Below are positions 3,782 to 6,868 of a stretch of 64,000 bases of DNA, piece by piece (the stretch's first letter is position 1; every line of letters starts with the position of its first letter). Source of the DNA: a virus (Duplodnaviria > Caudoviricetes); IMG/VR virus record IMGVR_UViG_3300032116_000009; one strand, 5' to 3'. A program made the translations under genes and the position numbers. The notes beneath the pieces are model-generated. The model had not been told where the DNA came from, made no database searches, and worked only from the letters and a program-made list of their open reading frames with translations.

Positions 3782-4318
3782 TCAATCTTCGGTAGGTTCC
3801 TCTACTATTTCTTCTGTAGTTTCTTCTACAATTTCATCTTCTAACTCTTCAATCTCATTTACTTCTTCTTTTAATCCAGGAGAAGACTCCAAATAAGACC
3901 TCAACATCCAAACAAATTTACCATGAGATTCGTTTAGATCATCTGCAAGATTTGAAGTTGCTCTTGACTTCTGTTCATCAGCTTCTTCAGCAACTTCAGT
4001 AAGAAGATCACAAAGATCTTGATTTGATTTTAACAGATCTTTAACCATCTTATGGCAATCTGTTGTACTTTGACCCGTTTTGACTTTTGATACTTCTAAA
4101 ACTCTCTCTAGACTGTTAAGAGGTTTTACATTTAAGAACCTCATATGTTCAGAGATGCGATCAATTTCTTCAAACATTGTTTCATATTGACCACCAAAAA
4201 GGGTATGAAGTTGTGGAAAATCTTCTCCTACTACATTCCAATGATAGGCCCAGGTCTTATGGAATAAGACAAAAAGTGATGCCTGAGCATCACTCAATAG
4301 TTTAAAAAGTTTTTCCAT
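3782..4318 (-). CDS. dps: Dps/ferritin-like DNA protection protein with acidic C-terminal tail
   Basis: KTWAYHWNVVGEDFPQLHTLF...EEIDRISEH ferroxidase signature. Confidence 0.92.
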   Translation of the reverse strand: MEKLFKLLSDAQASLFVLFHKTWAYHWNVVGEDFPQLHTLFGGQYETMFEEIDRISEHMRFLNVKPLNSLERVLEVSKVKTGQSTTDCHKMVKDLLKSNQDLCDLLTEVAEEADEQKSRATSNLADDLNESHGKFVWMLRSYLESSPGLKEEVNEIEELEDEIVEETTEEIVEEPTED

Positions 4319-4350
4319 TATATCAAAAATACTTTAGAAGTATTTAGTAA

Positions 4351-4422
4351 TGGGAGATACTGGATTCGAACCAGTGACTTCACACTTGTAAGGAGCGCAC
4401 TCTACCGCTGAGTTAATCTCCC
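4351..4422 (-). tRNA. tRNA-Val(UAC)
   Basis: GGGAGAT/ATCTCCC acceptor, CTTACAA loop; one U-U mismatch in the anticodon stem. Confidence 0.9.
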
Positions 4423-4566
4423 GTTAGGGGTGGGGGGTGAGAATTGGCTTTACTCACAACCGGGAAGGTTTCACTAGCCTAACGTTATTCCCAGTACTTA
4501 GGTTCTCTCAGGTAGAGAGTTCTATACCTTTGATTTCTCAACGATACAGCGGGCACCACCCCTAAC
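4423..4566 (-). ncRNA. Candidate 144-nt structured non-coding RNA
   Basis: Perfect 11-bp terminal stem GTTAGGGGTGG/CCACCCCTAAC enclosing about four hairpins, including TTGA-GAAA-TCAA; no ORF. Confidence 0.6.
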
Positions 4567-4640
4567 CTACTACATTACTCCGTACATAACCACAGGAGTT
4601 ATTCTGTCACACCCAGAGAACTTCCGTCGAAATTCTCAAG

Positions 4641-4712
4641 AGCGGAATACCGGATTCGAACCGGTGACATCCAACTTGGAAGGATGGCGTTCTACCACTG
4701 AACTAATTCCGC
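4641..4712 (-). tRNA. tRNA-Gly(UCC)
   Basis: GCGGAAT/ATTCCGC acceptor, CTTCCAA loop, U73. Confidence 0.95.
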
Positions 4713-4720
4713 ATGTACCA

Positions 4721-4749
4721 ATTATAAACTATGTAGTTTAGATTGGCAA
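4721..4749 (-). promoter_or_regulatory. sigma70-like promoter
   Basis: TTGCCA-17-TATAAT upstream of tRNA-Gly. Confidence 0.7.
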
Positions 4750-4750
4750 G

Positions 4751-4832
4751 TGTCGGTGAAAGGACTTGAACCTTCACGGATTACTCCATATGGGCCTAAA
4801 CCATACGCGGCTACCAATTACGCCACACCGAC
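4751..4832 (-). tRNA. tRNA-Leu(UAG)
   Basis: TATGG-TTTAGGC-CCATA anticodon arm, long variable arm. Confidence 0.93.
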
Positions 4833-4892
4833 AGTTGGTGACTTCGGATATGATGATCCCGAAGTCTTATGAAAGAACTTATGTCCTTTCAA

Positions 4893-4965
4893 CTCCCCCA
4901 CCTGGACTCGAACCAGGAACCCCAGAGTTAACAGCTCCGTGCTCTGCCAATTGAGCTATAAGGGA
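4893..4965 (-). tRNA. tRNA-Asn(GUU)
   Basis: CGGAG-CTGTTAA-CTCTG anticodon arm, G73. Confidence 0.95.
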
Positions 4966-4970
4966 ATGTG

Positions 4971-5047
4971 TGCCGTTGTGGGGGAATCGAACCCCTACTT
5001 CTCTAACTCCCTTGTCGGGGTGTCCTGACCACTAGACTACCAACGGC
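4971..5047 (-). ncRNA. tRNA-like element with aberrant anticodon arm
   Basis: GCCGTTG/CAACGGC acceptor, D arm GTCT-AGTGGTCA-GGAC, GGGG-TTCGATT-CCCC T arm; no canonical 5-bp/7-nt anticodon arm. Confidence 0.65.
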
Positions 5048-5050
5048 ATT

Positions 5051-5125
5051 TGGTGGCGGGGGGAGGAATTGAACCTCCTTCCTGAAGCTTATGAGACTTC
5101 TGTGCAACCGTTACACTTCCCCACA
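5051..5125 (-). tRNA. tRNA-Met(CAU), atypical (1:72 mismatch)
   Basis: GAAGT-CTCATAA-GCTTC anticodon arm, encoded CCA, U1xC72 mismatch. Confidence 0.8.
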
Positions 5126-5365
5126 ATGATAGCAGCATTTCACTGCTCGTAACACTTTCTTTACAGGGCTGTTATCACCCCGTCTCTCTAAACTAGGGCA
5201 GTAGACTTACTGCGAGAGAATGCAACGATGTTGTTTGCGTTTGTTTTTTGTCCCGTCAACAGATACAACCTTACTACCCCGTCGAAACCTTGGCAACCCC
5301 TTGCAATGGAGTTGTGGGGAGTCGAACCCCAGTCCGAAGCAACAGAATTTGCATCCTCTTGAACA
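5126..5365 (-). ncRNA. ssrA: Circularly permuted (two-piece) tmRNA; outer ends approximate
   Basis: 3' piece (GGGG-TTCGACT-CCCC T arm, CAACTCC-A) lies upstream of the 5' piece GGGGTTGCCAAGGTTTCGAC; G3-U70 pair; tag frame 5238..5188 = ANNIVAFSRSKSTALV*. Confidence 0.92.
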
Positions 5366-5371
5366 TAGTAT

Positions 5372-5400
5372 ATAGTATCAGAAAATTGTTCGGTTGTCAA
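5372..5400 (-). promoter_or_regulatory. sigma70-like promoter of tmRNA
   Basis: TTGACA-17-TACTAT. Confidence 0.75.
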
Positions 5401-5525: not shown

Positions 5526-5996
5526 TCATACAAAAATATATTCTTTCCATTCTGCAACTCTACTTTTCTGAAGATCTAAAACGACTTTACTAAAAGGAGC
5601 ATGAGGAATCTTTTTTAAAGCCATGTTAGTTTCTTTAAGAAGAAGATTTCCTTTTTTGGAATTACATGATGCACAACAAGTTACTAAATTTTCCCAAGTA
5701 TCTTCTCCACCTCTGGACCTAGGAATAACATGATCTATTGTTAGATTAGTTTTAGATCCACAGTATTGACACTCATTATCGTCTCTTTTATAGATCATAG
5801 ATCTAGTTGGATAATCAGTTTTACCGTGTGTGAAGGGCAATTTTACATAATTAACTAAACGAATAATTCTTTTTGTAATTAGTTTTGCTTTTTCTTTGAA
5901 CAAGAGTACTATGGCTCTTTTCCAATTTGTAAAGTGAATTGGTTCATAGGAGCTGTTCAGAACCAATATTGTTGAATGTGGTTCTACTATTTCCAT
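5526..5996 (-). CDS. HNH endonuclease
   Basis: [10 protein letters not shown]-terminus; CQYC...[13 protein letters not shown]...[17 protein letters not shown]. Confidence 0.92.
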
Positions 5997-6652: not shown

Positions 6653-6868
6653 TGTCCTTACGTTGCTTACTCCTTTATTCTACTCATTGGATTTACTTGT
6701 TGGACCTAATCGTTGGAATACTAACTGTGTTCAACTTATTACCCTGTCTCGACTTTAACGAGACTGTGTTCTATAGCCTTTGCGTTTGATAGTAATAAGT
6801 ATACTGACAGGTTTCTTTTACCTTTCAGTTTTCCGTTCAACCCAACTTTTGAATAAAGTTTGGGCAAG

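Follow-up and report, generated by a model that had tools for sequence, protein, structure and literature searches.

The manA motif (Rfam RF01745) is a structured RNA of T4-like cyanophages that Weinberg et al. (2010, Genome Biol 11:R31; PMC2864571) placed in 5' untranslated regions (UTRs), and both they and Rfam class it as a cis-regulatory element ('Cis-reg') and riboswitch candidate. In the part of the manA alignment file available to us, among the first 200 of the 438 files in the supplements of that paper, no mention of a tRNA was found. The genome paper of the Synechococcus phage S-CREM1 (Zhang et al. 2023, PMC9964418) also lists manA as cis-regulatory and leaves its tRNA flanks uncommented. 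A different picture comes from a recent cryo-EM study (Ren et al. 2026, bioRxiv 10.64898/2026.07.01.735769), in which a common pentamer gives rise to octamers, decamers and a 60-mer T=1 icosahedral shell of manA RNA. The pentamer is held together either by intermolecular kissing loops, L5-L7' and L8-L9', or by the contacts L6-P6' (a GNRA loop and its receptor), L5-L7' and L3-L8'. Those data were obtained in vitro, and the study mentions neither a tRNA context nor a cellular role. Here we describe a manA RNA that lies between two tRNA genes in a 64,000-nucleotide stretch of viral DNA (Duplodnaviria; Caudoviricetes; IMG/VR record IMGVR_UViG_3300032116_000009), referred to below as the window. 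All coordinates without a locus name are those of the window, and the RNA and its flanking features lie on the minus strand.

The identity of the element was established by a cmscan search against Rfam, which matched the complete manA model (positions 1-192 of 192) to 4427-4634 with a score of 100.2 bits (E 7e-27), the gathering score of the family being 55.2 bits. We regard it as almost certain that the element is a full-length manA family member of canonical size. It is the only copy that the Rfam scan found in the 64 kb of the window. The invariant core is present as GUGACAGAAUAA (4599-4610) and corresponds to the family core GUGACNGAAUAA that follows the 5' strand of helix P2; its columns are invariant in both of the alignments introduced below, of 90 and of 36 sequences. 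The 5'-UTR location on which the Rfam type 'Cis-reg' is based is not found here, and as this is a contextual descriptor outside the model, family membership stands. A preliminary description of the locus had flagged only 4423-4566, a stretch of 144 nucleotides (nt), as a candidate novel RNA. These 144 nt are the 3' two-thirds of a manA RNA of about 210 nt. The conserved RNA extends to 4634 according to Rfam, or to 4637 if the P1 hairpin is included, and occupies the entire space that separates tRNA-Gly from tRNA-Val. Both the novelty and the domain boundaries were thereby refuted, the former by the very Rfam search that the description had proposed. Its more local observations held. Over 4300-4760, at E values up to 1, Rfam gave no match to RNase P, signal recognition particle, 6S or transfer-messenger RNA (tmRNA). 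No open reading frame (ORF) of at least 50 aa was found on either strand of 4423-4639, base 4423 directly adjoins G1 (4422) of tRNA-Val(UAC) with zero spacer, and each of the hairpins it listed corresponds to a family helix: UUGA-GAAA-UCAA is the tip of P6, CUCUC/GAGAG is P7, GGGAA/UUCCC is P8 and GUGAG/CUCAC is P9.

We then compared the predicted structure with that of homologues. Copies of manA were gathered from viral contigs by two core patterns, filtered with a profile and aligned with MAFFT, giving one alignment of 90 homologues and a second of 36 sequences that includes the nearest relatives. Matches of the 14-mer pattern TGTGACAGAATAAC in viral contigs were mostly due to chance, with a true manA at only 11 of the 112 new loci. 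The pair counts omit P1, P6 and part of P7, whose columns do not line up between subtypes. Across the 90 homologues the Rfam-type structure was 97.1% paired, with 23 of its 36 pairs changed on both sides; none of 500 shuffles reached this score, and slid controls paired at 52% or less. RNAalifold independently returned the same architecture. On this comparative evidence the element is predicted to adopt the conserved family fold, comprising P1, a long-range P2, P3, a P4 junction with P5 to P7, P8 and P9. For the window sequence this fold was calculated at -67.8 kcal/mol and the minimum free energy (MFE) fold at -70.3 kcal/mol, so that the two are nearly iso-energetic in a calculation that leaves tertiary contacts uncounted.

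Numbered from the 5' end, the RNA begins with the predicted P1 hairpin, GAGAAUUUC-GACG-GAAGUUCUC (4616-4637), which starts 3 nt past the tRNA-Gly discriminator; the embedded relatives show covariation in its stem and keep the loop CGACGG. The 5' strand of P2, GGGUG (4610-4614), overlaps the core by one base, and the two together span 4599-4614, a region identified by its invariant columns. P2, whose long-range pairing of GGGNG with CNCCC encloses both junctions, covaries (A-U 23 and U-A 11; G-C 31 and A-U 3) and occurs in the family as GGGAG/CUCCC, GGGUG/CACCC and GGAUG/CAUCC. Its 3' strand lies in a C-rich tail (4423-4436) and can be placed in two registers. The Rfam register, CCCCC at 4432-4436, contains one U.C mismatch, and the register 4 nt downstream, CACCC at 4428-4432, pairs perfectly with GGGUG at 4610-4614. 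The latter leaves a 5-nt linker, CUAAC (4423-4427), before tRNA-Val, the other embedded copies having linkers of 4-6 nt, and is the preferred register as judged by pairing and linker length. P3 (4578-4598) shows compensatory changes in alignment columns 46-49/65-68. P4 closes the first multi-helix junction (4499-4569) by pairing UAGGUU (4564-4569) with AACCUA (4499-4504), where the consensus is UGAGAC/GUCUCA, and all 6 of its pairs show compensatory changes. The junction holds P5 (4551-4562, loop L5 GUGGUG at 4554-4559), P6 (4522-4549, GNRA loop GAAA at 4534-4537) and P7 (4505-4519, loop L7 UACCU at 4510-4514). Two further hairpins follow: P8 (4460-4494), whose helix in columns 158-162/193-198 has compensatory changes at 5 of 5 pairs, and P9 (GUGAG/CUCAC, 4437-4457), which is paired in 100% of sequences and shows compensatory changes at 4 of 5 pairs. 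The loops of these last two hairpins, GGCU at 4476-4479 and AGCC at 4446-4449, are complementary to each other.

With helices numbered in this way, L6 is the GNRA loop, as it is in Ren et al., and L5/L7 and L8/L9 are the two complementary loop pairs that we had found independently. From this agreement we infer that the loop names of Ren et al. correspond to loops of the window RNA. The L5-L7 contact, UGGU with ACCA, is invariant among the 90 homologues and is probably the 'pseudoknot?' annotated by Weinberg et al. In the smaller alignment, four embedded copies carry GGUGAUA in L5 and UAUCA in L7, a compensatory change of a G-C to an A-U pair accompanied by one of G.U to A-U; the counts were G-C 32 and A-U 4, although the four A-U cases may all go back to one or two events. 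L8-L9 was 97.5% paired, all 4 of its pairs showed compensatory changes, and none of 500 shuffles reached its score. The window copy itself departs from the consensus CUGU/ACAG on both sides, with GGCU/AGCC, and both assembly loop pairs are kept in it. In a homo-oligomer, covariation makes no distinction between pairing within and between molecules, and within that limit the comparison indicates that the L5-L7 and L8-L9 contacts are under selection, array-borne copies included. We also considered a T-box-like role in which the invariant GGUGGUG loop would recognise the NCCA terminus of tRNAs, and rejected it, as the ACCA loop changes to UAUCA where the other loop is GGUGAUA. Because L7 changes along with L5, the partner of L5 is L7 of a manA molecule and not an invariant tRNA end.

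The element is located inside an island of 26 tRNA genes that ARAGORN predicts together with a two-piece tmRNA. Upstream of manA lies tRNA-Gly(UCC) (4641-4712; ARAGORN, Rfam tRNA 70.5 bits), with its discriminator U at 4641 followed by CUU, so that CCA is not encoded. Downstream lies tRNA-Val(UAC) (4351-4422; ARAGORN, Rfam tRNA 64.5 bits). The spacer between them, 4423-4640 by the ARAGORN and Rfam coordinates, is about 218 nt long, and the layout reads tRNA-Gly, 3 nt, manA, 0 nt, tRNA-Val. Between 4423 and 4351 no terminator-like site, ribosome-binding site or ORF was found. The next ORF begins 104 nt past the manA spacer, beyond tRNA-Val; it lies on the same strand and encodes a Dps/ferritin-like protein of 178 aa (3782-4318; Pfam PF00210, E 5.7e-23). 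A consensus scan predicted a sigma-70-like promoter at 4721-4749 (TTGCCA, 17 nt, TATAAT; 11 of 12 matches), whose start would fall 1-2 nt before tRNA-Gly.

Flush tRNA flanks recur among relatives of the window subtype, which we define by a GACAGAAUAAC core and a long P6. Of 11 further copies of this subtype, 8 lie in tRNA arrays, and at least six different combinations of flanking tRNAs were found. The nearest annotated relative among isolates is that of S-CREM1 (OP535465.1, 10215-10429), which shares with the window copy the core subtype, the long P6 with a GNRA loop, the L7 sequence ACCU and the flush tRNA-manA-tRNA arrangement within a tRNA island. It differs in its flanks (tRNA-Leu upstream and tRNA-Asn downstream, with spacers of 1 nt and 0 nt, as against Gly and Val), in its P2 (GGAUG/CAUCC) and in having no 11-bp stem of the kind discussed below. 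Among viral contigs, manA lies between tRNA-Arg and tRNA-Thr in L213, between Arg and Val in L192 and between Arg and Gly in L177 and L229. In the remaining cases it follows tRNA-Gly and precedes a tRNA-like element called by ARAGORN alone (L214), the end of the contig (L163 and L175) or an ORF (L197, the nearest relative). Five of these loci (L197, L192, L213, L177 and L214) carry full-length manA with Rfam scores of 77-107 bits, and in all five manA starts 2-5 nt past the upstream tRNA. The distance to the downstream tRNA is 0-1 nt in four of them, L197 being the exception. In addition, six manA copies of the marine type are followed within 15 nt by a tRNA-Asn or tRNA-Gly. A conserved linkage of manA with dps was rejected, as the ORF that follows manA in L197 shows no relationship to the Dps-like ORF of the window (BLASTP E 9.5).

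Copies outside tRNA arrays are typically borne by a promoter of their own. A -10 box was found in 98 of 111 such copies, 90 of these 98 also having a -35 element, and predicted transcription starts a few nucleotides before P1. An ORF follows at a median distance of 40 nt, and the ORFs are a mixed set: gp32 (18), transaldolase (10), DUF6561 (7), phosphomannomutase (6), Hsp20 (4), ThyX (3), PurS (2) and others. Directly before manA, three of these loci (L040, L058 and L115) and most marine loci have a terminator-like G+C-rich hairpin with a T-run, about 30-75 nt upstream of the GGG core. In promoter-borne copies the loop and stem of this upstream hairpin include the -35 hexamer TTGACA, as in GAGGGGTG-TTGA-CACCCCTC-TTTTTTT, so that hairpin, T-run and -35 element form a compact terminator-promoter unit. 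In both contexts the 5' end is flush with P1, set either by promoter initiation or by the 3' end of a tRNA. By this comparison of loci, the conserved feature appears to be an RNA whose 5' end is flush with P1, with neither the partner gene nor room for an expression platform being conserved.

Next we looked for the region in RNA libraries. Two metatranscriptome runs of one study (X15 and X16) contain it as assembled contigs, from which RNA ends and local levels cannot be read. A deep X15 contig (depth 759) covers 3929-4620, taking in tRNA-Val, a portion of dps and almost the whole of manA, and the contig on the tmRNA side has a depth of 14. The deep X16 contig (depth 408) covers 4434-5353, with manA, the upstream tRNAs and tmRNA, and the dps contig of that run has a depth of 8; contigs neighbouring the two deep ones range in depth from 3 to 14. 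The only overlap between the two deep contigs is manA, which hints that manA is the abundant RNA species. Two variants in these contigs, at 4584 in P3 and 4632 in P1, convert G.U to G-C pairs. The X16 contig crosses the predicted promoter at 4721-4749 from upstream, and it ends at 4434 directly at the Illumina adapter, 11 nt before G1 of tRNA-Val and at the foot of the 3' arm of the 11-bp stem. Position 4434 may mark a favoured end of the RNA or of its cDNA; the P2 3' strand would be missing from an RNA that stopped there. Two other RNA runs (X17 and X18) gave pieces of 90-95% likeness on the tRNA and tmRNA parts only, leaving manA uncovered.

These observations can be assembled into a model. 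The manA cassette would be transcribed together with tRNA-Gly and tRNA-Val as part of a phage tRNA operon. The 3' cut of tRNA-Gly would free the 5' end of manA, and an RNase Z-type cut is proposed because this tRNA encodes no CCA; an RNase P cut at G1 of tRNA-Val would free the 3' end. Excision by these enzymes is proposed by analogy with the established RNase Z and RNase P pathways. The product would be a free RNA of about 210-218 nt that acts through its own structure and not as a leader for a downstream gene. By homology with the RNAs studied by Ren et al., such a free RNA would be expected to self-assemble, associating through L5-L7' and L8-L9' into closed homo-oligomers built from pentamers, and oligomerisation of the window copy is likewise proposed from its counterparts of L5-L7', L8-L9' and the GNRA loop L6. 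The in vitro data concern other sequences. We favour, with moderate confidence, the joint proposition that manA becomes a free RNA and that its action lies in its own structure; that oligomers form in vivo is a more tentative proposition, which we hold to be rather doubtful. The suggestion in the preliminary description that the locus yields a discrete non-coding RNA thus survives, with other boundaries, and is strengthened by the recurrent flush tRNA flanks and by the deep RNA contigs.

The main rival to a free RNA is a cis-acting, riboswitch-like leader controlling what follows it, in this case tRNA-Val and the Dps/ferritin-like gene. It has in its favour the published classification of the family, the fact that most copies are driven by a promoter of their own and precede an ORF by a median distance of 40 nt, the X15 contig that bridges manA, tRNA-Val and the dps ORF, and the ORF, in place of a tRNA, that follows manA in L197. 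We nevertheless consider it unlikely. The coupled expression platform of a riboswitch is not found here, where the tail runs straight into G1 of tRNA-Val, and there is no room for one in any of the embedded copies, in all of which the tail meets G1 of the tRNA within 4-6 nt and no terminator is present. The flanking tRNAs vary among phages while flushness is kept. The downstream ORFs are functionally unrelated across the family, a poor fit to a single metabolite, the literature searched, from 2010 onwards, names no ligand, and family members form defined homo-oligomers. A free RNA with defined ends is preferred over a leader because flush arrays with interchangeable tRNAs, starts at dedicated promoters and covarying assembly contacts are found together. 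Several points weigh on the other side. In most family members an ORF begins some 40 nt further down, as in the classical leader picture. L7 of the window copy is UACCU, as in S-CREM1, and not ACCA, so that one L5-L7 pair is lost, and the 11-bp alternative stem, if formed, destroys P4, P5 and P2. What is known of oligomerisation was obtained in vitro with other manA RNAs and comes from a preprint not yet peer-reviewed, and our assignment of its loop names to the window RNA is itself inferential. The RNA evidence consists of assembled contigs, which can give neither transcript ends nor local levels, and since the X15 contig continues from manA through tRNA-Val into the Dps ORF, unprocessed read-through RNA or carry-over of DNA into the library may exist.

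The 11-bp stem leads to the remaining alternatives. The preliminary description took it for the closing helix of a 144-nt domain, and the duplex does exist: GUUAGGGGUGG (4556-4566), the 5' arm, which overlaps P4, P5 and L5, pairs perfectly with CCACCCCUAAC (4423-4433) and does so within the MFE fold. That fold, at -51.1 kcal/mol for the 144 nt (z -4.43), reproduces the claimed structure, which is the one point that speaks for a new stable RNA closed by this stem and unrelated to known families. We give that reading almost no credence, since the full-length manA match reaches 68 nt further 5' and the stem is without conservation. Its columns were 62.0% paired as against 62.3% in shuffles for the 90 homologues, and 60.2% as against 61.3% for the 36 sequences; in each of the other 89 members the regions of the two arms form only 4-6 contiguous pairs. 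It is therefore not the closing helix of a conserved structure, and it is mutually exclusive with P4, with P5 and the invariant loop L5, and with the P2 3' strand. A conserved pseudoknot between L5 and the tail CCACC, which forms the inner part of the stem, was rejected as well, since no covariation was found and the tail varies while L5 is fixed. The stem might still be functional as a lineage-specific conformer that, until resolved, blocks assembly of the RNA or its precursor or modulates RNase P cleavage at tRNA-Val. It is perfect and exceeds every stem found in 300 shuffles of the 217-nt spacer, in which the maximum was 10 bp and an 11-bp perfect stem never occurred. Under the nearest-neighbour model, folding with this stem is favoured over the family fold by 2.5 kcal/mol, the stem would exclude P4, P5/L5 and P2 altogether, and the X16 contig stops against the adapter at 4434, the foot of its 3' arm. 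All the same, we consider a function quite improbable. The stem is unique to the window copy, L197 having GGGUGG/CCACCC only and S-CREM1 only 4-5 pairs; covariation is absent; the conserved G-rich L5/P5 and the C-rich tail account for about 6 of the 11 pairs; and the energy model takes no account of the tertiary and quaternary interactions by which the family fold is favoured. A 1-nt deletion at 4432 in the X15 contig falls in a C-run and leaves the stem unbroken, and is uninformative in this respect. The stem may be an accident arising on G-rich and C-rich family segments or a lineage-specific alternative conformer. A last alternative is that the window copy is a decaying or functionless leftover in the tRNA array. 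The weakened L5-L7 contact (ACCU), the extra CCCC in the tail, the mismatch in the Rfam register of P2 and the competing stem could be read in this way, yet the case for decay is very weak in view of an Rfam score on a par with other members (100 bits as against 77-107), compensatory changes in P4 and L8-L9 relative to the consensus, RNA-contig variants at 4584 and 4632 that convert G.U to G-C pairs, the depth of the RNA contigs, and the recurrence of the phage, across 11 studies, in 14 or more DNA runs in which this stretch is at least 92% intact.

Other features of the window complete the setting. The phage is an uncultured T4-like cyanomyovirus without a close isolate, being at most 80% identical to S-SCSM2R, S-SKS1 and S-CREM1, and the labels of the DNA runs in which the stretch recurs nearly intact are nearly all freshwater or lake. 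The two-piece (permuted) tmRNA of the island is of the cyanobacterial type (5131-5381 (-); cyano_tmRNA 116.6 bits; ARAGORN tag ANNIVAFSRSKSTALV), and the island also contains an HNH endonuclease ORF (5526-5996 (-); Pfam PF01844, E 2.9e-17). At 1478-2512 there is an ORF resembling 6-phosphogluconate dehydrogenase. A hairpin followed by a T-run, similar to a terminator, was seen at 4274-4295 (-), 24 nt into the Dps-like ORF, and the X15 contig reads through it; the number of terminator-like sites in the region equals chance expectation. Variation in the array itself is visible in the X16 contig, which has 202 other letters in place of 97 bases that the window carries at 4788-4886, in the spacer from tRNA-Leu to tRNA-Asn; because of this replacement, the filling of this array spacer is seen to differ among related strains. 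The array has a second long non-tRNA gap at 6653-6868 (-), for which an Rfam scan at E values up to 1 matched only the flanking tRNAs, and a second manA or a wcaG RNA was rejected for it on that basis. tRNA islands with an embedded manA often also carry the wcaG RNA and the abiF motif, S-CREM1 (locus L001) being among them; Rfam matches include wcaG at L177:6646-6748 and L197:927-1028 and abiF at L192:6757-6793. Within the window, neither wcaG nor abiF reached the Rfam gathering threshold.

The use of a neighbouring tRNA as a handle for a small RNA has precedents. The tRNA cluster of phage T4 yields two stable RNAs, species 1 and 2 (RNAs C and D), that are processed from tRNA transcripts, and tRNA-linked small RNAs are also represented by the tRNA-miRNA units of gammaherpesvirus 68 and by MALAT1-mascRNA. 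The principle, in which RNase P and RNase Z define the ends, would be the same here by analogy. manA has no sequence or structural relation to any of these RNAs, and its processing is a proposal drawn from the tRNA flanks. With respect to the catalogued manA motif, the window copy has the same GUGACNGAAUAA core, nine-helix two-junction architecture, GGUGGUG loop, C-rich tail and host group. It differs in its extended P6, its L7 (ACCU and not ACCA), four extra C in the tail and the private 11-bp stem; and where the motif is catalogued as a 5'-UTR cis-regulator, this copy and its closest relatives sit flush between tRNAs with no expression platform.

A speculative extension, which we think unlikely, is that tRNA arrays serve as a production line in which manA protomers trimmed by RNase P and RNase Z would assemble into RNA-only, pentamer-based shells of up to 60-mers in the infected cyanobacterium. 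If this were true, the phage would make an RNA compartment or scaffold, which might for example sequester a host factor or protect a cargo, and the private 11-bp stem could be a precursor-state lock on assembly. The window contributes an array-borne manA of canonical size, a tally of the flanking tRNA combinations and evidence from covariation for both assembly interfaces. From 2010 onwards manA has stood as an orphan 'riboswitch candidate'. Its flush array context, the promoter-set starts of the remaining copies and the covarying assembly contacts together argue that a free, end-defined RNA, and not a leader, is the biologically relevant form.

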